A stretch of 64,000 nt of DNA, taken from the NCBI GenBank assembly GCA_000270325.1, contig BA000048.1:1413481-1477480 (forward strand). Direction: 5' to 3'. Shown piece by piece: positions 7,523 through 27,651 of this stretch (position 1 is its first letter; each line of letters begins with the position of its first letter). Origin of the DNA: Candidatus Caldarchaeum subterraneum. GTDB taxonomy: Archaea > Thermoproteota > Nitrososphaeria_A > Caldarchaeales > Caldarchaeaceae. A program made the translations under genes and the position numbers. The notes under the pieces were generated by a model. It was given only the letters and a program-made list of their open reading frames with translations, ran no database searches and was not told where the DNA came from.

Positions 7523-8854
7523 ATGAACAGAAAAAGCTCAGCAGGGGTTTCATCCTCTGTAGCTGGCGCTGCTGCTGTCGTTGCATTGATTGTCGGCTTG
7601 TTGATAGGCGGCATCGGTCTCGGCCCCATACTCTCCCCTGCCCAAACCATAACACAGACAAAAACAGTGGCTACGACCGCGACTGTTACAGCTGCAGCGG
7701 GTTTAACAGGTGAGGTCACTATAGGTAGTTTGCTGTGTCTCAGCGCTGTTCTTTCCTCCTATGCTGAAAACGAGCGAGTAGCGATGGACCTTGCCGCGAG
7801 AGAAGTGAACGACTTTCTCCAACGTGCTGGTGCAGGTTTTAGAATTCGCATGATTCATGAAGACACAGCCTGCAACCCCGCAACCGCCGAGGAAAAGATT
7901 CGTAGCCTCAATGCTAGAGGCGTTAAGCTGGTAGTTGGGCCCATGACTTCGGCTGAGGTTAGGCAGATAAAGAGCTATGTGGACGCGAACAAAATCCTGA
8001 TAATCTCGCAGTCATCGACGGCTCCTGACCTCAAGATACCCAACGACTTCGTATTCAGGTTCACCACAGCAGACGATATACAAGGCCCCATAGGACCGCG
8101 GCTCGCTAAGCTACTTGGCATAACACACTTCCTATATGTCTGGAGAGGAGACGCATGGGGTGATGGCCTGCACACGGTATCCACAGGTGAGGCAAAAAAG
8201 CTCGGATTAAACCTCGTCTTCGAGCTAAGATACGCCCCTGATAAAACCGAGTTCTCAGCAGAAGTCTCCCAACTCAACGCCAAGGTCACGGAACTCCTCA
8301 ACCAAGGAGTTTCTCCAGACAAAATAATGGTGGAAATCGTCGGCTTTGACGAGGTCGTAGCATTCCTCTCAGCTGCGAACGAATATCCGAACCTCAAGCG
8401 TATAAAGTGGTTTGGAAGCGACGGAACTGCGGTGACAGCTGCCATCTTCCAAGACCCAGCCGCCACAGGTTTCGCTGAGCAGGTCAAGTGGATTAATCCA
8501 TTGTTCTTTGCAACCACACCAGACAGAAAGGCCCGTGTCGACGCCGAGGTTCTCCGCGTACTCGGCAGGTCTCCACCTGACGCCTACAGCTACGCGGCAT
8601 ACAGCGCTGTCTGGGCTTACGCCCTCGCTTTGATGGCTACACAGAAGTATGACGCTGAAGCCGTGAGAGCTGTTTTGCCCACGATTGCGGCCGATTTCCT
8701 CAGCCTCAAGCTCGACGACGCAGGCGACCTTCCATACTCCGACTACATACTCTGGGTCGTCAAAACAGTTGACGGGAAGCCGAGATGGGTTGAGGCAGGG
8801 CGCTACGTCTACGCCTCAGGCACTTTTGAGTGGGCCGAGGGCTTCACTCCATAA
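7523..8854 (+). CDS. ABC transporter substrate-binding protein (LivK/amino-acid type) with N-terminal membrane anchor and Thr-rich linker
   Basis: Periplasmic-binding-protein-like body after a TM helix and a TQTKTVATTATVTAAAG linker. Precedes two ABC ATPases. Confidence 0.75.
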   Translation: MNRKSSAGVSSSVAGAAAVVALIVGLLIGGIGLGPILSPAQTITQTKTVATTATVTAAAGLTGEVTIGSLLCLSAVLSSYAENERVAMDLAAREVNDFLQRAGAGFRIRMIHEDTACNPATAEEKIRSLNARGVKLVVGPMTSAEVRQIKSYVDANKILIISQSSTAPDLKIPNDFVFRFTTADDIQGPIGPRLAKLLGITHFLYVWRGDAWGDGLHTVSTGEAKKLGLNLVFELRYAPDKTEFSAEVSQLNAKVTELLNQGVSPDKIMVEIVGFDEVVAFLSAANEYPNLKRIKWFGSDGTAVTAAIFQDPAATGFAEQVKWINPLFFATTPDRKARVDAEVLRVLGRSPPDAYSYAAYSAVWAYALALMATQKYDAEAVRAVLPTIAADFLSLKLDDAGDLPYSDYILWVVKTVDGKPRWVEAGRYVYASGTFEWAEGFTP

Positions 8855-8890
8855 TTTTCTTAAATACATCCCACACCTTTTTTCTTAGGG

Positions 8891-9652
8891 ATGGAAAACA
8901 TTATACTTGATGTTAGAGATGTTTACAAAAGCTTCGGCGGATTGTATGCGCTGAATGGAGCATCTCTACGTGTGAAGAAAGGCTCTCTATCACTGTTGAT
9001 TGGGCCTAACGGAAGCGGTAAAACAACCCTCATCAACACCGTGACAGGCGTCTACAAGCCCGAGGCCGGCAAGATAATTTTCGAGGATAGGAACATTACG
9101 GGTCTTAAGCCGCATGTCATCTACAAGCTCGGACTGGTGAGAACATGGCAAATACCTCAGCCCTTCTACTCCATGACCGTGCTCGAGAACCTCCTAGTGT
9201 CGGATAAGAACAAAAAAGGAGATGGGTTGTTGTCCGCGCTTCTCCGGTCGCGATGGATAGATAGGGAGATGGAGTTGACGCAGAAAGCTTTTGAAATTTT
9301 GAAACTGCTAAAGCTTGACCATCTCTGGGACCACAGGGCAAGCGAGCTCAGCGGAGGCCAGATGAAGCTCCTCGAAACAGGACGAGCACTGATGAGCGGC
9401 GCAAAAATGATATTGATGGACGAGCCTGCCGCGGGTCTCAACCCAGTACTCGCACACGAAGTATTCACACACCTAAGAAACGTCTGCAAAAAACTCGGGG
9501 CAACGCTTCTTCTAGTGGAACACAGGCTGGACATAGCGATACCATATGTTGACCATGTCTACGCCATGCATCTCGGTAAAGTTATCGCTGAGGGAGAGCC
9601 TCAAGAGGTTTTGACCAACAGCTTGGTCGTGGAAAGCTACTTGGGTGGCTGA
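8891..9652 (+). CDS. livG: ABC transporter ATP-binding protein (LivG-like)
   Basis: Walker A GPNGSGKTT, ABC signature LSGGQ, Walker B ILMDEP. Confidence 0.85.
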   Translation: MENIILDVRDVYKSFGGLYALNGASLRVKKGSLSLLIGPNGSGKTTLINTVTGVYKPEAGKIIFEDRNITGLKPHVIYKLGLVRTWQIPQPFYSMTVLENLLVSDKNKKGDGLLSALLRSRWIDREMELTQKAFEILKLLKLDHLWDHRASELSGGQMKLLETGRALMSGAKMILMDEPAAGLNPVLAHEVFTHLRNVCKKLGATLLLVEHRLDIAIPYVDHVYAMHLGKVIAEGEPQEVLTNSLVVESYLGG

Positions 9653-9654
9653 CT

Positions 9655-10356
9655 ATGTTGATGACACAGGGTCTCGGAGCAGGTTACAAAAAGCTTCAAG
9701 TTTTGTTCGATGTCTCGGTTACGGTGCCCGAGAAACAGCTCACAGTGGTGGTGGGCCCTAACGGAAGCGGCAAAAGCACATTCCTCAAAACAATATTCGG
9801 CCTGACCAAAATCTACTCGGGAAAAATCATGCTCGACGGAGTCGACATAACAGGTCTTCAGCCCCATGAAATCGCATACCACGGCATATCTTATGTTCCA
9901 CAGGTGGATAACATATTCAGCAACCTAACAGTATACGAAAACCTGCTTATCGCAACCCATGGACTGGACATCGACGAGTCGGCGATAGACGATGTCATGG
10001 AGATGTTTCCGCATCTAAAAACCTACCGTAACAAAAAAGCGGCTTTAATGAGCGGGGGTGAGAGGCAGATGCTCGCCATAGCCATGTCTCTCCTCAGAAA
10101 ACCCAAGATAATGCTCTTCGACGAGCCGACTGGCAACCTCTCACCGAAAATGGCCATCACAATCTTCAACATAATCAAAGACCTCCGAGAAAACTATGGG
10201 AAAACAATCCTCCTAGCTGAACAGAACGCGAAAAAAGCTCTCGAAATAGGTGATAAGGCAATACTCCTAGTAAGCGGGAAAACGGTCTACCAAGGCGACG
10301 CCAACGCATTGCTTACGCATGAGGAGCTGGGGAAGCTTTACCTCGGAATCAAATGA
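9655..10356 (+). CDS. livF: ABC transporter ATP-binding protein (LivF-like)
   Basis: Walker A GPNGSGKST, signature MSGGE, Walker B MLFDEP. Confidence 0.85.
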   Translation: MLMTQGLGAGYKKLQVLFDVSVTVPEKQLTVVVGPNGSGKSTFLKTIFGLTKIYSGKIMLDGVDITGLQPHEIAYHGISYVPQVDNIFSNLTVYENLLIATHGLDIDESAIDDVMEMFPHLKTYRNKKAALMSGGERQMLAIAMSLLRKPKIMLFDEPTGNLSPKMAITIFNIIKDLRENYGKTILLAEQNAKKALEIGDKAILLVSGKTVYQGDANALLTHEELGKLYLGIK

Positions 10357-13270: not shown

Positions 13271-13344
13271 GGGCCGGTAGATCAGTCTGGAAGATCGCCC
13301 GCTTGGCGTGCGGGAGGTCCTGGGTTCAAATCCCAGCCGGTCCA
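13271..13344 (+). tRNA. tRNA-Ala (anticodon GGC), no encoded CCA
   Basis: Cloverleaf GGGCCGG/CCGGTCC acceptor with the G3:U70 Ala identity pair, anticodon loop CTTGGCGTG, T-loop GGTTCAAATCC. A TATA-like ctttatagaaa lies about 30 bp upstream. Confidence 0.9.
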
Positions 13345-13377
13345 CTTGTTTATGGATAAGGTTTAACAGGGATACTG

Positions 13378-21582: not shown

Positions 21583-21982
21583 TATGTCGACGAGACCATC
21601 CTCTTACTGGCGTCTCCGCCCATATCTCTACAGGCTTGAGGGAAACCGTTGCACACAGTGCGGCCACTTTAACCCGCTCGCGCGAAAGATATGTAGGAAA
21701 TGTGGCTCCCGCCGCCTCGAGCGAGACAGGCTCGCCGGCCGTGGTAAACTAAGGCATTTTACTGTTGTGTATCAGCCTCAGACAGGATTTGAGAAAACGG
21801 TTCCATATGTGGTCGCTTGGGTTGAGATGTCTGACGGAACCCAGATAATAGGCCAAGTTACAGACTGTGAGCCATCGGAACTTTCCGTAGGCATGGATGT
21901 CGAAACGGTTGTGAGAAAAATACGTGTAGATGGTGAGTCTAAGCTGATAGTTTACGGAGTAAAGTTTAGGCCAGTGCTTTAA
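21560..21982 (+). CDS. DUF35 OB-fold/zinc-ribbon scaffold protein of the thiolase/HMGCS complex
   Basis: CTQCGHF...CRKCGS zinc ribbon followed by an OB fold. Overlaps the thiolase 3' end. Confidence 0.8.
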   Translation: MSWRRGCSMSTRPSSYWRLRPYLYRLEGNRCTQCGHFNPLARKICRKCGSRRLERDRLAGRGKLRHFTVVYQPQTGFEKTVPYVVAWVEMSDGTQIIGQVTDCEPSELSVGMDVETVVRKIRVDGESKLIVYGVKFRPVL

Positions 21983-22773
21983 CGGTTGGCTAGGCTTTTC
22001 CAGAGAAGAATTACAGCATACTCCCTTGGTATCGATTCTTGCTGAGCTATTTTCTCAATCTCCGCCCTAGCCACGGCCTCGGCCCGCTGTCCATGTGAGA
22101 GAATGTATTTTTTCTTGATTTCTTCGAAGAGCTTGGCCGGCTCCTCTTTGTTGGTGGTTATGTCGGCTATGTTGCGTGGGAGGTCTGAAAGCTGTTTAAC
22201 CATTTCCTCCACCATCTTTAACCTGTTGCGGAGGCTTGCGAGCTTTTTCCGCAGCTCAGGTATCTTGGCCTCCAGCTCCTCTCTGATGCCCACACCTCTG
22301 CCAGAGTCCGAGTCCTTCTCCAGCTGCATCGTGTTGAGCTCTATGCTTGACCAGATAAGCTCCTCCTCGACCTGCGCAAACTCCGACCCTAAAGCCTCTT
22401 TCGCTGCCTTCAACCTCTCCAAGACCTCTCCGCTTTTCTCCAGCAACGCGTTCCTTTTTTCGGCAAGTCTGCTCAGGATATTTCTTACCAGCTGAGGCCT
22501 TAGTTCCTCCATCTTAATGCAGTAAAGCATGAAGTTACGGTCCAAACCGCGTAAACGTTCAATTTCCCGCATAAGTTCATCATACATCTTAAGAGCCTCG
22601 TCAAGCTCGTCGCCGACCGGCTGCTGCGTCACAGCCTCCTCGACAGGCTTCACACTCTCCTCTTTGACAGTTTGTTCCTCTTGTGGTGGTGTGGGAGGAA
22701 CAACCTCTACATCTGGAGATGTCTCAGGCTTCTGCGGCGACGGCTTGATACGGAGAACAATCTTCTTCGGCAA
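21979..22773 (-). CDS. Coiled-coil protein, hypothetical (downstream of and co-oriented with the JAMM gene)
   Basis: 264 aa with a Pro/Glu-rich N-terminus and long heptad-like segments. Confidence 0.4.
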   Translation of the reverse strand: MPKKIVLRIKPSPQKPETSPDVEVVPPTPPQEEQTVKEESVKPVEEAVTQQPVGDELDEALKMYDELMREIERLRGLDRNFMLYCIKMEELRPQLVRNILSRLAEKRNALLEKSGEVLERLKAAKEALGSEFAQVEEELIWSSIELNTMQLEKDSDSGRGVGIREELEAKIPELRKKLASLRNRLKMVEEMVKQLSDLPRNIADITTNKEEPAKLFEEIKKKYILSHGQRAEAVARAEIEKIAQQESIPREYAVILLWKSLANR

Positions 22774-22804: not shown

Positions 22805-23413
22805 TTATGCTCCGAATAGCTTTTTAGCTTTTCCCAGCAGACTCTCCTGCTCTTCTGACAAAGGCTTGTCCCTCGTCTTACCAGAGGACTCGCCTAAGAT
22901 ATGCATAAAGTCAAAGGTGCTTAATGCGTGGAAAGTGCTTTCGAGAAGTTTCGCCCGATGCACTCCTATGCTCACGGGAAGGGAGACAACCCTCCCCTCT
23001 TTCGATATCTGGAAAACCTTGAACTTGAGAGAGGAGATTCTTCGTGTTTTGGCATAATCAACGGGGTCCACCACAAGGGCTACAGCCTTGCTGAACATTG
23101 CTTGGTATCGCTTCTGGGTGTCGATGTCCGTTGGCGAAAGAAAAACATCAAGCCCCGGATGCGAATGATACCATCCAACTATGTAGAGGTTTTTATCTGA
23201 TTTGGAGAGTTCTTCTGCAACCTTTGCCATAACCATCTCGTCAAGCTGCACGTAAGCAGGTGTACCGTACTGCTCACCCGTGACAGCATCCCATATCTCG
23301 AGAACCTTTCCTGCCGACTTGCCGACCAGCAAGCCCGCCACTTCACGCTGGAGGCTTGACGCAGCGTGTTTAACCACCTTCGCCAAGGCCAGCGGATAGA
23401 TTCTTACACGCAT
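22805..23413 (-). CDS. JAMM/MPN+ metalloprotease, Rpn11-like deubiquitinase
   Basis: Complete JAMM motif: upstream Glu (REVAGLLVG) and HSHPGLDVFLSPTD (HxHx7Sx2D). Confidence 0.85.
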   Translation of the reverse strand: MRVRIYPLALAKVVKHAASSLQREVAGLLVGKSAGKVLEIWDAVTGEQYGTPAYVQLDEMVMAKVAEELSKSDKNLYIVGWYHSHPGLDVFLSPTDIDTQKRYQAMFSKAVALVVDPVDYAKTRRISSLKFKVFQISKEGRVVSLPVSIGVHRAKLLESTFHALSTFDFMHILGESSGKTRDKPLSEEQESLLGKAKKLFGA

Positions 23414-23517
23414 TAGCAGACCATCGTCTAGGACGGTAATAAAAGTGACGCTCCGAGAAACGTTGTTGAATATTACCGAGGTATTTTGTTCACTGGCTCG
23501 AGGTTTGACTTCTGGTT

Positions 23518-23535
23518 AATCCTTATATATGCTGC
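23518..23535 (+). promoter_or_regulatory. TATA-like element (aatccttatatatgc) about 22 bp upstream of the Ub gene
   Basis: Sits in the 140-bp divergent intergenic region between the JAMM and Ub genes. It shares the ccttatat core with the arlB promoter element. Confidence 0.35.
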
Positions 23536-23553
23536 GGTTGTGAGGAGTCCAGA

Positions 23554-23817
23554 ATGAAGATTAAGATTGTTCCCGCTGTCGGAGGAGGTTCACCCTTGGA
23601 GCTCGAGGTTGCTCCAAACGCCACCGTCGGCGCAGTTCGGACGAAGGTTTGCGCTATGAAGAAACTGCCACCCGACACCACCCGCCTAACCTACAAGGGT
23701 AGAGCCCTCAAAGACACCGAAACTCTTGAGAGTCTCGGCGTGGCTGATGGAGACAAATTCGTACTCATCACGCGGACGGTGGGTGGATGTGGAGAGCCAA
23801 TACGTCGAGCTGCCTGA
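23554..23817 (+). CDS. Ubiquitin homolog (pro-form: beta-grasp ending in GlyGly plus a 9-aa C-terminal extension CGEPIRRAA)
   Basis: LPPDTTRLTYKGRALKDTETLESLGVADGDKFVLITRTVGG aligns with ubiquitin [41 protein letters not shown]. The N-terminal MKIKIV strand resembles MQIFVK. Confidence 0.85.
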   Translation: MKIKIVPAVGGGSPLELEVAPNATVGAVRTKVCAMKKLPPDTTRLTYKGRALKDTETLESLGVADGDKFVLITRTVGGCGEPIRRAA

Positions 23818-24295
23818 AAACGCGTGGTACAGGCGGCTGGCTCTCGAGTATGCTTTGATTCAGGAGAATGAACCCACCTTCACACCCGTCGAAAACGACC
23901 TAACTCATTACGAGGGAGTCATAGTCGGCTCAGGCGAATATGAGGGAGGCTTTTTCAGAGTAGAAATAATCATTCCACGGTCTTACCCATATTTCCCACC
24001 CGATGTTATTTGGCACACACGGATATGGCATCCAAACTTCTCTGACAGCGTCCCCGCAAGAGTCTGTGAATCAATTTTCAAAGACCACTGGTCACCCTCT
24101 CTCCGCATAGTGGCCGTAATCGAGTCTTTGAGAAACCTTTTGACAAACCCCAACCCCGAGGACCCGCTCAACCCCGTCGCAGCATTTGAGTACAAGAACA
24201 GGCCCGACCTCTTCTACAGCCGTGTTAGGCAGTTTGTCGAAACATATGCTACGCCTGAGCAGGCTTTCGGAAAGAAGCGTTGGAAGGGTTTGTAG
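23726..24295 (+). CDS. Ubiquitin-conjugating enzyme E2 (UBC fold). Start is uncertain: ATG 23726/23747 or GTG 23783/23789; it overlaps the Ub 3' end
   Basis: UBC hallmark HPN motif with the downstream catalytic Cys (RIWHPNFSDSVPARVCESIF). The N-terminal helix is RRLALEYALIQENEP. Confidence 0.8.
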   Translation: MRVSAWLMETNSYSSRGRWVDVESQYVELPENAWYRRLALEYALIQENEPTFTPVENDLTHYEGVIVGSGEYEGGFFRVEIIIPRSYPYFPPDVIWHTRIWHPNFSDSVPARVCESIFKDHWSPSLRIVAVIESLRNLLTNPNPEDPLNPVAAFEYKNRPDLFYSRVRQFVETYATPEQAFGKKRWKGL

Positions 24296-25479
24296 TGTTG
24301 GGTGAGGTTGACGCGCTGTCGAGGTACGATCGCCAGCTACGGCTCGAGGGATGGGACCAGAACAAGCTCCTGTCGGGTAGGGTGATTGTAGCAGGTGTGG
24401 GGGCGCTTGGATGCGAGGTTGCGAAAAACCTCGCTCTTATGGGAGTTGGCGAGCTCCTCCTCATAGACAACGACTATGTCGAGCTTTCCAACCTCAGCAG
24501 ACAGATGCTCTACACCGACCAAGACATAGGAAGACCAAAAGCCTCTACGGCTGAGAAAAAAATATCCTTGATGAATCCTCTCGTGAAGGCGAAAGGCCTG
24601 CACACAGATGTCCGAAAAATCCCCGAGGAAACCTTCGCCGAGGCCGATGTCATAGTCTCAGCCGTCGACAACTGGCCGACAAGAAGATGGATGAACTCGA
24701 TGGCGGTGCATGTCGGAACTCCGCTTGTCGACGTAGCCACCGACGGCTACTATGGAAATGTTCAAACAGTGATACCCGGTGTCACCAGCTGCCTGGAATG
24801 CCATGCAGAGGCCCTTATTCCCTCGGACATACAGGCCTCGGAATGCTCTCTACGCCGCCGCACCCCAAACGACCTCGTCAAAGACCTTAGTGAACGAGGC
24901 ATATCAATAAACTTGTCCGATGCCGAGACTCTCTTCCAACACAACATCAAAACAGTCTACGACATCAAGTTCGCGCCGCAGACAGTGTTGGATCAAATGG
25001 ATAAGTCACTCAGAGAACAAGTCATCCAGCTCCGTTCACTGCTTAACCCCAAGATGCCCGCTCTACAGAGCATATCAGCAACCGTCTCAGGCCTTGCCTC
25101 GTTCGAAGTAGTCCGTTTACTTCATAAAGGTTCTCTGGGCAGGTCGTTGAACGGTATGATGGTTTTCGACGGGCTGAGGGGGAGGCTTTCGCGTATAAAG
25201 CTGGAGAGAAACGTGAACTGCCACGTATGCGGCTACAGCGAGGACAAGCCTGTGCAGATAAATGTTGCGCCTAACGAAACTATCGCCGACCTAAGAGAGA
25301 GAATATCCAACCTTCTAATGTTTCCTGACACCCGTTTACAACACGGCGCAAAACTATTGGATGACACGGCTGATATTACATCGGCAGGCATATGTGATGG
25401 AGACATACTTTATATCCATTCAAGCAGGAGAGCAACACCGGTGGCTGTGAAGGTGAAGCTGATTGAGGCTGGTGATTAG
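24280..25479 (+). CDS. Ubiquitin-activating enzyme E1-like (ThiF/MoeB/UBA family) with C-terminal ubiquitin-fold domain. Likely start is the GTG at 24295 overlapping the E2 stop (taGTG)
   Basis: YDRQLRLEGWDQNKL plus the Rossmann motif VAGVGALGCEVAKNL. A Cys-containing crossover region (CLECH...C) and a beta-grasp-like C-terminus. Confidence 0.85.
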   Translation: MEGFVVLGEVDALSRYDRQLRLEGWDQNKLLSGRVIVAGVGALGCEVAKNLALMGVGELLLIDNDYVELSNLSRQMLYTDQDIGRPKASTAEKKISLMNPLVKAKGLHTDVRKIPEETFAEADVIVSAVDNWPTRRWMNSMAVHVGTPLVDVATDGYYGNVQTVIPGVTSCLECHAEALIPSDIQASECSLRRRTPNDLVKDLSERGISINLSDAETLFQHNIKTVYDIKFAPQTVLDQMDKSLREQVIQLRSLLNPKMPALQSISATVSGLASFEVVRLLHKGSLGRSLNGMMVFDGLRGRLSRIKLERNVNCHVCGYSEDKPVQINVAPNETIADLRERISNLLMFPDTRLQHGAKLLDDTADITSAGICDGDILYIHSSRRATPVAVKVKLIEAGD

Positions 25480-25690
25480 AGAGGTCAACGCAGGGTTTTG
25501 GAACCCCTTTGAGGAGCCGAAGCCAAGGCCGAAGCAAGAGAACTGTGTAATTTGTGGCCTGGAGATGGGGAATGAAAAAACATATTCATGTCCTCACTGT
25601 GGAGCAGTTGGTCACATGTCGTGTTTCGACGACTGGCTGGTGGTGAAGCAGACGTGCCCGCTTTGCCGCAGGCCGCTGGTAGAGATGTGA
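25463..25690 (+). CDS. Small RING-type zinc-finger protein (putative E3). Likely start is the GTG at 25472 overlapping the E1 stop
   Basis: CVICx10CPHCx4Hx2Cx10CPLC, a C4HC3 cross-brace spacing, in a protein of about 72 aa. Confidence 0.8.
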   Translation: MRLVIREVNAGFWNPFEEPKPRPKQENCVICGLEMGNEKTYSCPHCGAVGHMSCFDDWLVVKQTCPLCRRPLVEM

Positions 25691-25691
25691 G

Positions 25692-26003
25692 ATGAGCGGA
25701 GAAGAAAACGAGAAAGTAATCGAGCTGGACTATTTGGAGACGCCGAAAGGAGCAGTAGCAAGGTTCGAGGGTGTCCGGCAGCTGGCTGAGGTTCTTGCAG
25801 AGGTTATCGAGGAAATTGACAAGATGAAAGAGCGGCTGCAAACACTGTCCGAAAGCAGTCAGACTCCCGAGAACCTCGAGCGCAGGCTGAAATACATAGA
25901 GGACCAGCTGATTGTGCTTAGCGACGACGTGAGAGAGATATTAAACGCCCTCGGGGAGTTGTCTGCGACGGTTGCGCAGATAAAAAAGGCTTTGAAGCTA
26001 TGA
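25692..26003 (+). CDS. Small helical/coiled-coil protein, last gene of the Ub operon
   Basis: The ATG sits 1 nt after the RING gene stop (tgagATG). 103 aa, acidic and helical. Confidence 0.4.
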   Translation: MSGEENEKVIELDYLETPKGAVARFEGVRQLAEVLAEVIEEIDKMKERLQTLSESSQTPENLERRLKYIEDQLIVLSDDVREILNALGELSATVAQIKKALKL

Positions 26004-26906
26004 TGTCAGGAAGGCTCGTCTCATCTCTGTGATTAGCTCGTTAAGTTCGGTTCGACGTCTCTCCATCTCAGCTATCTCTCTGGCCAGCGTCTCCTTGTAG
26101 GCTTCCAGCTTCTTAACCTCCTCCCTCAACTTGTTGGAAGTCTCTATCAAAGTCTCCGCTTCTGCCTTGCTTTTCTCCAGAGCTGCTAGACGCTCCTCAA
26201 GCTCCCTCTCCCTGCGTATCATCCTCTCCATCCTTATCTCCCGCAGCTTAAACAGCTTATCCATCTCTCTTCCAAAGTTTTCAAGCTTTTTCTGAGCCTC
26301 CTCAAATGATGTGAGGTAGCGTTCCGACAGGATGTTTATCTCTGTCTCGAGCGCTTCTTTCTTGGTGATAAGCTGCTTCAGCGTCTCCTGCGCCTCCGCT
26401 ATCTGCTTCTCCTTTGACTCAAGCTCCTCACGCCACTTCAGAACCTCCTCGCGAAGCCTAGACAAGCTCTCCCTCTCCTGCATAAGCCTCTGAACTTCCT
26501 TAACCAGCTCAGCACGCTGGTTCGACAAAAGGTCAGCCGTCTCATGCAAGCTCTCACTAAGCGACTTGACCTCCTCCGTTAACCCCCTATACGAGTCCAG
26601 CGCCTGGTCCAGAAGATACGCCTTCTCGACAACAGACTGCAGGGATGACAGAGTTCTCTGAGGAGATGAAACCTGCTCAAGAACCTGGCGGACATCCTCC
26701 TTGAGCTTGGCCAAGGCTTCTTCGAGCAGGCTTATTCTTTCTTCAAGCTTTTCTATGACCTGTACCCTTATGGCCGCGACCTCTTTACGGAGGTCGGCTA
26801 TGCTGTCTGACTTTCTCGGCAGCAGACCCATGGCTGAATTTGGGGTCTGCATGATTATAAACCCTACTTGGTAGTGTAAGATAGAGAATGGCCAAGTATT
26901 GTTCAA
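25998..26906 (-). CDS. Long coiled-coil protein, hypothetical
   Basis: 302 aa, essentially all heptad-rich E/K/R/L sequence. Convergent with the Ub operon. Confidence 0.4.
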   Translation of the reverse strand: MNNTWPFSILHYQVGFIIMQTPNSAMGLLPRKSDSIADLRKEVAAIRVQVIEKLEERISLLEEALAKLKEDVRQVLEQVSSPQRTLSSLQSVVEKAYLLDQALDSYRGLTEEVKSLSESLHETADLLSNQRAELVKEVQRLMQERESLSRLREEVLKWREELESKEKQIAEAQETLKQLITKKEALETEINILSERYLTSFEEAQKKLENFGREMDKLFKLREIRMERMIRRERELEERLAALEKSKAEAETLIETSNKLREEVKKLEAYKETLAREIAEMERRRTELNELITEMRRAFLTS

Positions 26907-27651
26907 AGGTTTTCGTGGGGCATGTTTTTATAAGGTGGGGCATCTGGGTTTAATCGGCATGGTTGTGTCTGAGAGACGGTTGCTCGTTCGGTTTTTTCAG
27001 ATAGGCTCGGTGCTGGCTTTGGCGGGCAGCATACATGTGCTGACCCTTCTCCTTCCATGGTACACTGTAAGGGCTGACAGCGTTTCAACCTCTGTTTTGA
27101 GCGGCTACCTGCTACCCGAGACACTGGCCCTCTCAGTGGCCGGAGGAGTTTTGGCGGGTCTGTCTTTGTTGGTGACATCCTTTAGCCAGCGTCCCATGGC
27201 GGTGAGAACCGTGCTAGTTGTCTTATCGCTTTTAGGAGGGGTGCTAGCCATGGTTTCTCCGCTCTATCTCGGGCTTGTCAGGGTTCCGGCTCTAAGCGTG
27301 GCTGGCGAGCCGGGCATAGGGTTCTTCATAGCACTTTTCTCCGCCATAGTTATTCTTGCGTTAGGAGGAGTGGCTCTTATGACACGGCCGCGTGTGGTCG
27401 AGATTCCATATCAAGGCTATGGTGGCGTGAGCGGGGCTACAGTGTCGTCCACACAGCCGATGGAGACAACCTCTTTTGAAGTTGCCGGTGAGGTTGAGGA
27501 GGGAGTAGTCTGCCCCATTTGCTACACATCCGTGGAAGCTGAAAATGCTGTTAGATGCTCCTCATGCGGTGTAGTTTTTCACTCTGGATGCCTTGACGCA
27601 TATGTAAACATAAACGGTACTTGCCCAAACTGTGGAAGAGCCGTTGTCTAG
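26899..27651 (+). CDS. Polytopic membrane protein with C-terminal cytosolic C4HC3 RING/PHD-like zinc finger
   Basis: Four to five hydrophobic helices, then CPICx11CSSCx4Hx2Cx9CPNC. The spacing is the same as in the small RING protein at 25463. Confidence 0.6.
   Translation: MFKGFRGACFYKVGHLGLIGMVVSERRLLVRFFQIGSVLALAGSIHVLTLLLPWYTVRADSVSTSVLSGYLLPETLALSVAGGVLAGLSLLVTSFSQRPMAVRTVLVVLSLLGGVLAMVSPLYLGLVRVPALSVAGEPGIGFFIALFSAIVILALGGVALMTRPRVVEIPYQGYGGVSGATVSSTQPMETTSFEVAGEVEEGVVCPICYTSVEAENAVRCSSCGVVFHSGCLDAYVNINGTCPNCGRAVV

Follow-up and report, generated by a model that had tools for sequence, protein, structure and literature searches.

The ubiquitin-modifier cluster of Candidatus Caldiarchaeum subterraneum and the genes conserved around it

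Does the 64,000-nucleotide (nt) stretch of archaeal DNA considered here (from contig BA000048.1; "the window" below, with positions counted from its first letter) encode a complete ubiquitylation pathway of the eukaryotic type, and if so, is the pathway a known one, and does its genetic unit end with the genes that can be recognized by homology? A preliminary description, made from the sequence alone, had proposed that positions 22805 to 25690 hold a full ubiquitin (Ub) cycle in five adjacent genes, with a JAMM/Rpn11 metalloprotease gene divergent from an operon for Ub, an E2, an E1, and a RING finger protein. The five open reading frames (ORFs) are found at these positions, each matching its Pfam family above threshold. 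We consider it almost certain that they are CSUB_C1473 to C1477, the ubiquitin-modifier cluster of Candidatus Caldiarchaeum subterraneum, which encodes a minimal ubiquitylation system of the eukaryotic type: each of the five proteins is 100% identical to its deposited counterpart (BAJ51324 to BAJ51328, encoded on a contig of 1,680,938 bp), with exact-sequence matches for the JAMM protease (BAJ51324.1), Ub (BAJ51325.1), E2 (BAJ51326.1), and RING protein (BAJ51328.1), and 394 of 394 residues identical between the E1 and BAJ51327.1. The preliminary description had gone only as far as a match to the C. subterraneum architecture, which understates the case, since the window is the same locus. Chance cannot account for a run of five ORFs in which successive components of a single pathway each score above a curated threshold, and nothing was found to contradict the assignment. 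In nucleotide comparisons, the window shares 99.5 to 99.6% identity with independent metagenome contigs of Caldiarchaeum, and 90.8% with the GTDB species representative.

The cluster was first reported by Nunoura et al. (NAR 2010/11; PMC3082918) as rpn11l-ubl-e2l-e1l-srfp, with rpn11l (CSUB_C1473) on the reverse strand adjoining ubl (C1474), e2l (C1475), e1l (C1476), and srfp (C1477). Between that cluster and the window there is no difference in the five genes: order, strands, overlaps, and residue numbers are alike, and the published RING motif is the one read here. The cascade was rebuilt in vitro in 2017 (Hennell James et al.; PMC5654768), and structures of CsUb, CsRpn11, and the CsRpn11-CsUb complex were solved the following year (Fuchs et al., 2018; PMC6043591). 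The residue numbers of these two studies all land on the expected residues in the window translations, which independently confirms the start codons used here. That an archaeon encodes a minimal E1/E2/RING-E3/Rpn11 ubiquitin machinery in an operon bears on the origin of eukaryotes. This significance was already recognized in 2010/11 on exactly the same locus, and the five-gene finding adds nothing new to it; with reconstitution and structures published since, the cluster is the type example of its system.

ORFs were taken from a six-frame list, and domains were assigned by Pfam against the gathering threshold, with further scans against NCBIfam and PADLOC. Related loci were collected by a genome scan with a single query, the E2 protein; its reach is limited to E2s of at least 58% identity, so that the Asgard clusters lie outside the sample. 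The scan returned Caldarchaeales loci only, and the 21 from Caldarchaeales species genomes (L001-L021) were used for comparison, with synteny assessed by tblastn of the window's neighbor proteins against them. The five-gene cluster is kept in these 21 species genomes, with graded divergence (E2 identity from 99% down to 58%).

The five proteins

The Rpn11-like JAMM metalloprotease (CsRpn11, CSUB_C1473; 202 amino acids [aa], 22805..23413, minus strand) matches Pfam JAB (1.5e-22, 80.1 bits) and is 100% identical to PDB 6FJU_A over all 202 aa. The metal site described earlier as an intact E...HxHx7Sx2D motif is complete, reading as E24 and H83-x-H85-x7-S93-x2-D96 in the sequence. The published active site of CsRpn11, an enzyme active alone, consists of Glu24, His83, His85, Ser93, and Asp96 (PMC6043591).

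Pro-ubiquitin (CsUb, CSUB_C1474; 87 aa, 23554..23817, plus strand) comprises a mature Ub of residues 1-78 with a GG end (23554-23787) and a nine-residue pro-peptide, CGEPIRRAA, after G77-G78 (23788-23814). The earlier identification of an 87-aa ubiquitin homolog holds: the protein matches Pfam ubiquitin (PF00240) at 7.7e-13, with 48.4 bits against a cutoff of 25.4 bits, as well as the PDB entries 2MQJ (E = 1.5e-53, residues 1-87), 6FJ7, 6FNN, and 5ZEW, which derive from NMR and crystallography. No ThiS or MoaD model was matched by it in the Pfam scan, an outcome that would have pointed to a sulfur carrier rather than to a ubiquitin beta-grasp, and published comparisons assign it a ubiquitin-like fold (PMC5654768, PMC6043591). 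Its C-terminal half had been singled out as aligning with eukaryotic ubiquitin. That half does align (12/38 identical to human ubiquitin), as does the rest of the protein: a gapless alignment gives 23/76 identical residues (~30%) overall and 11/38 in the N-terminal half. Thr46 occupies the position of human Ile44. Rpn11 cuts the nine-residue pro-peptide off pro-Ub, and conjugation via the resulting TVGG end has been shown by tandem mass spectrometry (MS/MS; PMC5654768). Across the Caldarchaeales, the pro-peptide after TVGG is poorly conserved, running to 6-18 residues and variable in both length and sequence. Four lineages (L017, L019-L021) lack it, the Ub gene (6732-6998 in L019) ending right after GG, so that Rpn11 would not be needed there for Ub maturation.

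The E2 ubiquitin-conjugating enzyme (CSUB_C1475; 168 aa, 23789..24295, plus strand) begins with a GTG: the mechanically called ORF extends back to a TTG at 23726, but the match to BAJ51326.1 is exact only from GTG 23789. It had been described as an E2 with an HPN motif and catalytic Cys, and both are there, as H81-P-N and a single Cys, C93, which aligns to the active-site Cys of UBC8 and UbcH5. The UBC fold is represented essentially end to end, with Pfam UQ_con (PF00179) matched at 1.2e-29 (103.1 bits) over profile positions 2-139 of 140. The nearest PDB relatives are the eukaryotic UBC8 and Ubc4/UbcH5 (~1e-25), and P67/Y68 and P103/S104 agree with the published numbering.

The E1 ubiquitin-activating enzyme (CSUB_C1476; 394 aa, 24295..25479, plus strand) also starts with a GTG, with an alternative TTG at 24280. 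It had been called a ThiF/UBA-type E1 with a C-terminal ubiquitin-fold domain, and both parts of this are supported. The first follows from a Pfam ThiF match (PF00899; 1.7e-56, 191.5 bits), with a Gly-rich ATP loop (G34VGALG, fitting G34xGxxG) and, as nearest PDB relatives, the catalytic subunits of yeast Uba1, UBA7, and NAE1. The ubiquitin-like (UBL) domain at the C terminus, approximately aa 317-376, gives no more than a weak Pfam match (E = 0.03); an HHalign comparison of E1 residues 316-394 (20 orthologues) with the Ub family of the same operon gives a probability of 97.1% (E = 5.4e-11, 32% identity over 60 columns). C184 (in SECSLRRRTPN) aligns to yeast Uba1 Cys600 (in PLCTLRSFPN), within the catalytic-Cys insert that follows the adenylation core, and a putative Zn site is formed by C166xxC169 and C309xxC312. 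From these alignments, E1~Ub and E2~Ub thioesters would be expected to form on C184 and C93, respectively. The two enzymes form a stable complex by size-exclusion chromatography (PMC5654768).

The E3 of the system, the small RING finger protein (srfp, CSUB_C1477; 25463..25690, plus strand), is encoded by the last gene of the operon. Of the earlier description, a C4HC3 RING finger of about 72 aa, the ligand order was borne out; the length is 75 aa from the TTG start, and 72 aa only from a GTG at 25472. The protein matches Pfam zf-RING_2 (6.5e-10, 39.6 bits against a cutoff of 27.3 bits), with rubredoxin-like and zinc-ribbon models, which would have suggested a different kind of metal-binding protein, scoring under their cutoffs (E = 0.016 to 0.035). 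Its nearest PDB relatives are the RING-H2 E3s EL5, Arkadia, RNF38, and Hrd1, and models made with I-TASSER and PHYRE2 have been published (PMC5654768). The E2-binding residues I30 and W58 and the linchpin R69 are present; mutation of any of these impairs ubiquitylation (PMC5654768).

The ligands read C28-x2-C31-x11-C43-x2-C46-x4-H51-x2-C54-x10-C65-x2-C68, and none of the eight Cys/His positions varies among 15 orthologues. Hennell James et al. (PMC5654768) instead class srfp as RING-H2 (C3H2C3), with ligands C3 and H4 shifted by two residues. We did not adopt this subclass: a phmmer alignment places Ala48 at the canonical H4 position of EL5. C43 and C46 are among the invariant positions, H45 is replaced by Asn in L018, and a paralogue encoded nearby (CSUB_C1480, discussed below) has C-S-S-C at this point. 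On these grounds the C4HC3 order given by Nunoura et al., and again in the preliminary description, appears to be the better supported reading.

Upstream of the RING, the N-terminal extension of srfp (25463-25540) contains a conserved motif, GFWNPFE, shared by the window and L004-L013 (11 of the 15 sequences aligned); L014 has GFWDPF. The published accounts consulted contain no discussion of this motif.

Operon layout, putative promoters, and the proposed cycle

The four genes of the operon overlap or abut. The E2 GTG at 23789 lies inside the 3′ end of the Ub gene, giving a 29-nt overlap; the E2 stop and E1 start have one base in common (TAGTG); and the RING TTG lies inside the E1 gene, with a 17-nt overlap. 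The three junctions are those listed in the preliminary description. Because of this packing, it is very likely that Ub, E2, E1, and RING are co-transcribed and translationally coupled, from one conserved promoter composed of a B recognition element (BRE) and a TATA box. In one of the more distant loci, L015, a 223-aa gene on the opposite strand (7536-8207, minus strand) is inserted between E2 and E1, breaking the tight coupling.

The putative promoter of the Ub operon is a BRE/TATA-like element at 23514..23529 (plus strand), composed of GGTTAATCC followed by TTATATA (23523-23529), and ending 24 nt before the Ub ATG; a TATA-like box had been placed about 22 bp upstream of Ub, essentially where it is found. 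The element is conserved: TTAAnCCTTATATA is unchanged, at a fixed distance, in L001-L012, and L013 has a one-base variant, TTAACACTTATATA, while the spacer around the element varies among the related loci. An SD-like (Shine-Dalgarno-like) GAGGAG before the Ub ATG was considered as a ribosome-binding site and dropped, as it is not conserved in the related loci. As a reading made without recourse to databases, the preliminary description of this locus is accurate.

On the other strand, the JAMM gene has a TATA-like box of its own at 23437..23444 (minus strand; TTTTATTA), 23 nt upstream of the ATG at 23413, which would serve as its promoter. The core GTCAyTyTTATTA is kept in L001-L007 and L010, and is replaced by TTTTAATA in L008, L009, L011, and L012. 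In archaea, the TATA box typically lies about 25 nt upstream of the transcription start. The distances from TATA to ATG found here are close to this usual spacing, so that the Ub-operon and JAMM mRNAs are probably leaderless or nearly so.

In the cycle, Ub is produced as the 87-aa precursor, from which the divergently transcribed Rpn11-like JAMM protease cuts off the nine residues after Gly77-Gly78. The E1 would then adenylate the exposed C-terminal glycine and take Ub onto its catalytic C184, whence it would move to the single E2 cysteine, C93. The srfp protein binds the E2 via I30 and W58 and, with R69 as linchpin, promotes discharge of Ub onto substrate lysines and onto the Ub lysines K4, K53, and K68, and the same Rpn11 strips Ub from conjugates.

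Much of this has been shown in published biochemistry. The E1 requires ATP, and activates only cleaved or truncated Ub, with an exposed C-terminal Gly-Gly; E1 and E2 auto-ubiquitylate in an ATP-dependent manner, through isopeptide bonds identified by MS/MS; and ubiquitylation of a substrate needs E1, E2, and srfp together (PMC5654768). The reaction is abolished or impaired by the changes E2-PY67/68AA, srfp-I30Q, srfp-W58A, srfp-R69A, and Ub-T46D, while Ub itself is modified at K4, K53, and K68, and Rpn11 removes the conjugates (PMC5654768). These in vitro results were obtained with exactly these proteins; any role in vivo is one that we infer.

The surrounding conserved block

The conserved block is larger than five genes, with order and strand kept in every locus that reaches far enough to show them. 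On the JAMM side, a gene for a 264-aa coiled-coil protein (21979..22773, minus strand) follows the JAMM gene on its own strand, 31 nt downstream, and adjoins it in 21 of 21 loci, including L019-L021, and is the most persistent neighbor of the cassette. The protein has no Pfam domain, and its homologues fall into 24 clusters, all from Caldiarchaeum-type (Caldarchaeales) metagenome-assembled genomes (MAGs). Its N-terminus is rich in Pro and Glu, and a C-terminal motif (..IPREYA..L.W..) is conserved.

Counts on the RING side are over the 16 loci that reach past the RING gene (L001, L002, L004-L011, L013-L018). A gene for a 103-aa coiled-coil protein (25692..26003, plus strand), possibly a sixth cistron of the operon, has its ATG 1 nt past the RING stop (TGAgATG); it is in the same position and on the same strand in all 16, and is also called as a gene in L022-L025. 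Converging on it with a 6-nt overlap is a gene for a 284-aa coiled-coil protein (25998..26852, minus strand; 302 aa if begun at a TTG at 26906), again syntenic in 16 of 16. SMC, Rad50, RecN, LmuB, and JetC were considered as relatives of the coiled-coil neighbors and rejected: the matches, from Pfam, NCBIfam, and PADLOC, are generic and sub-threshold, and were taken as compositional.

Beyond these lies a second RING protein gene, CSUB_C1480 (26959..27651, plus strand, from an ATG; the mechanically called ORF begins at a TTG at 26899). The 250-aa TTG-start version is an exact match to BAJ51331.1; the ATG at 26959 is favored because most homologues are 228-239 aa long. The protein matches Pfam zf-RING_2 (1.9e-09), is 37% identical to srfp over 46 aa (E = 2e-10), and has the same Cys/His spacing as srfp (C-x2-C-x11-C-x2-C-x4-H-x2-C-x10-C-x2-C). 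Hydropathy and an AlphaFold2 model (mean predicted local distance difference test score 80.5) place four predicted transmembrane helices (4-30, 52-73, 78-111, 119-140) before a disordered linker and the C-terminal RING, which by the positive-inside rule is predicted to face the cytoplasm. CSUB_C1480 is a candidate membrane-anchored E3. A claudin/TARP tetraspan fold was also considered for it, but the Foldseek matches against PDB (E at least 3.7e-3, TM-scores of 0.44 to 0.58) are below significance. Its 17 homologue clusters are all from Caldiarchaeum-type MAGs, and it is syntenic with the Ub operon wherever the locus reaches it. Homology searches with the 264-aa protein and with this transmembrane RING protein gave no link to Asgard or eukaryotic proteins.

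The published accounts consulted, PMC3082918 among them, end at the five genes and unlabelled "hypothetical proteins": the flanking coiled-coil genes and a membrane anchor are not discussed in them, and CSUB_C1480 is not named. It seems conceivable, though on present evidence we would put it below an even chance, that the functional unit comprises about nine genes: the five of the cluster, the three coiled-coil genes, and CSUB_C1480. In such a unit, the 264-aa coiled-coil gene would possibly be co-transcribed with Rpn11, and the 103-aa gene could be translationally coupled to the RING gene. In favor of the larger unit, order and strand are kept in the 16 loci, including L015-L018 (E2 identity 60 to 65%), where the block has held together despite loss of the upstream thiolase and OB-fold (oligonucleotide/oligosaccharide-binding) genes, and where the downstream glycyl-tRNA synthetase (GlyRS) gene has the inverse orientation in L017 and gives only a weak match in L018; the 264-aa gene, as noted, is beside JAMM in all 21. 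Several points weaken it. All of the genomes come from one order, in which shared ancestry alone could keep the arrangement; most loci keep GlyRS as well; and in L019 the RING-side genes are missing, with no RING gene after E1 and an ABC-transporter substrate-binding gene (8676-10346) in its place. L020 and L021 end too early to show this side.

One apparent fusion was not counted as evidence. P0099 (a JGI metagenome protein; 191 aa, on a single 18,259-bp contig) joins JAMM residues 1-150 (83% identity) to residues ~62-104 of the 264-aa protein (63% identity) in one ORF, and looks like an in-frame deletion between the two neighboring genes or an assembly artefact.

Should the nine genes cooperate, adaptors, substrates, or a membrane arm of the archaeal ubiquitin system could be among them. 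The wider block, which has a transmembrane RING paralogue as well as the three coiled-coil genes, could help in looking for physiological substrates, and is the only possibly useful addition made here to what is already published. Elsewhere in the window, the sole tRNA or Rfam match is a tRNA-Ala (GGC) at 13271-13345 (plus strand), unrelated to the cluster.

Alternative explanations and known systems

Could the five genes instead be a prokaryote-type sulfur-carrier or small archaeal modifier protein (SAMP) system, pairing a ThiS/MoaD-like modifier with a ThiF/MoeB/UbaA enzyme, that merely resembles a ubiquitin system? The E1 adenylation domain does match the NCBIfam ThiF, MoeB, and SAMP-activating UbaA models (3e-39 to 2e-33), and one homologue, GBC72510.1, is annotated "Sulfur carrier protein ThiS adenylyltransferase." These matches, however, are confined to residues 7-184 and fall far below the model cutoffs (e.g., 134.5 against 275 bits; for UbaA, 115.9 against 450), and the E1 has in addition the catalytic-Cys insert aligned to Uba1 Cys600 and the C-terminal UBL. 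The modifier matches Pfam ubiquitin and no ThiS/MoaD model, and is encoded in the same operon as an E2 and a RING protein. Four separate ThiS/MoaD genes are found elsewhere in the genome (PMC3082918), and CsRpn11 and CsJAMM each discriminate their own partners (PMC6043591). Published E2- and srfp-dependent isopeptide conjugation (PMC5654768) refutes a SAMP-type reading, which we regard as extremely improbable. The possibility of a bacterial-style anti-phage module with a ubiquitin-like modifier (Cap2/Cap3 of the cyclic-oligonucleotide-based anti-phage signaling system [CBASS], Bil, or 6A-MBL) is raised by PADLOC matches of the E1 to "E1-E2" (Cap2) models, up to 3e-22, and of the JAMM protease to JAB (Cap3) at 1e-07, together with an NCBIfam 6A-MBL cap2_3 match at 8e-14. 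These reflect only shared Rossmann and JAB cores, and are weaker than the matches to ThiF (1.7e-56), Uba1 (2.8e-38), and Rpn11 (4e-21); Ub, E2, and RING have no PADLOC matches at all. E1 and E2 are not fused as in Cap2 but encoded separately, and no CD-NTase, effector, MBL, or other defense gene occurs within 6 kb on either side. In at least 14 species, and unlike a mobile defense island, the cluster has stable housekeeping surroundings (thiolase, GlyRS, NADH dehydrogenase). A defense module is accordingly a very unlikely identity for it.

As for a eukaryotic source, by contamination or by recent horizontal transfer, the nearest characterized relatives of all five proteins are indeed eukaryotic, and Nunoura et al. 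allow that an ancestral eukaryote may have been the source of an ancient transfer (PMC3082918). Against contamination or a recent transfer stand the operon packing with its overlapping frames and GTG/TTG starts, the conserved archaeal BRE/TATA elements upstream, a uniform GC content (~0.51 to 0.52 over the region) with ordinary archaeal genes on the flanks, the graded divergence of the cluster (E2 from 99% down to 58%) through 21 Caldarchaeales species genomes, and the identity of only ~30% to eukaryotic proteins. In published trees, moreover, the Caldarchaeales proteins are not nested in one modern eukaryotic clade (PMC5654768). The chance that either event explains the locus seems very small. 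The assignment of the cluster has some limits. For E2, E1, and RING, the start codons follow the annotation, and the PDB copy searched contains no structure of the proteins themselves, their best matches there being eukaryotic homologues. The only substrate ubiquitylated in vitro is a heterologous one, Sulfolobus Rad50 (PMC5654768). Finally, the organism is uncultured.

Among known systems, those that use a common set of a beta-grasp modifier, a ThiF-type adenylating E1, and a JAMM isopeptidase include SAMP/UbaA/HvJAMM1, Cap2/Cap3, and Bil. SAMP systems have ThiS/MoaD-type modifiers and lack an E2 or RING, whereas C. subterraneum has both; Cap2 is an E1-E2 fusion tied to defense genes, and the window proteins score below the cutoffs of those families. 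The Asgard clusters (Loki-, Odin-, and Heimdallarchaeota) also encode Ub, E1-like, E2-like, srfp, and Rpn11-like proteins (PMC5654768, PMC6043591).

The likeness to the eukaryotic pathway extends to each component. CSUB_C1476 has the GxGxxG, catalytic Cys, and C-terminal UBL of E1s of the Uba1/NAE type; CSUB_C1475 has the HPN, the Cys, and the loop 4 and loop 7 E3-binding residues of E2s; srfp has the cross-brace ligands, E2-binding Ile and Trp, and linchpin Arg of RING E3s; and Rpn11 and Ub share with their eukaryotic counterparts the JAMM E-HxH-S-D motif and a GG terminus made as a precursor. The differences are in number, size, and arrangement. C. subterraneum has one copy per component, encoded in an operon, and its E1 is a single 394-aa chain rather than a pseudo-dimer of ~1000 aa. 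Compared with the eukaryotic RING-H2 proteins, srfp has the ligand order C4HC3, with C43 and C46 invariant. Eukaryotic Rpn11 sits in the proteasome lid, whereas CsRpn11 is free and active alone; and the Ub precursor, processed in eukaryotes by other deubiquitylating enzymes, is in C. subterraneum processed by CsRpn11 itself (PMC6043591).

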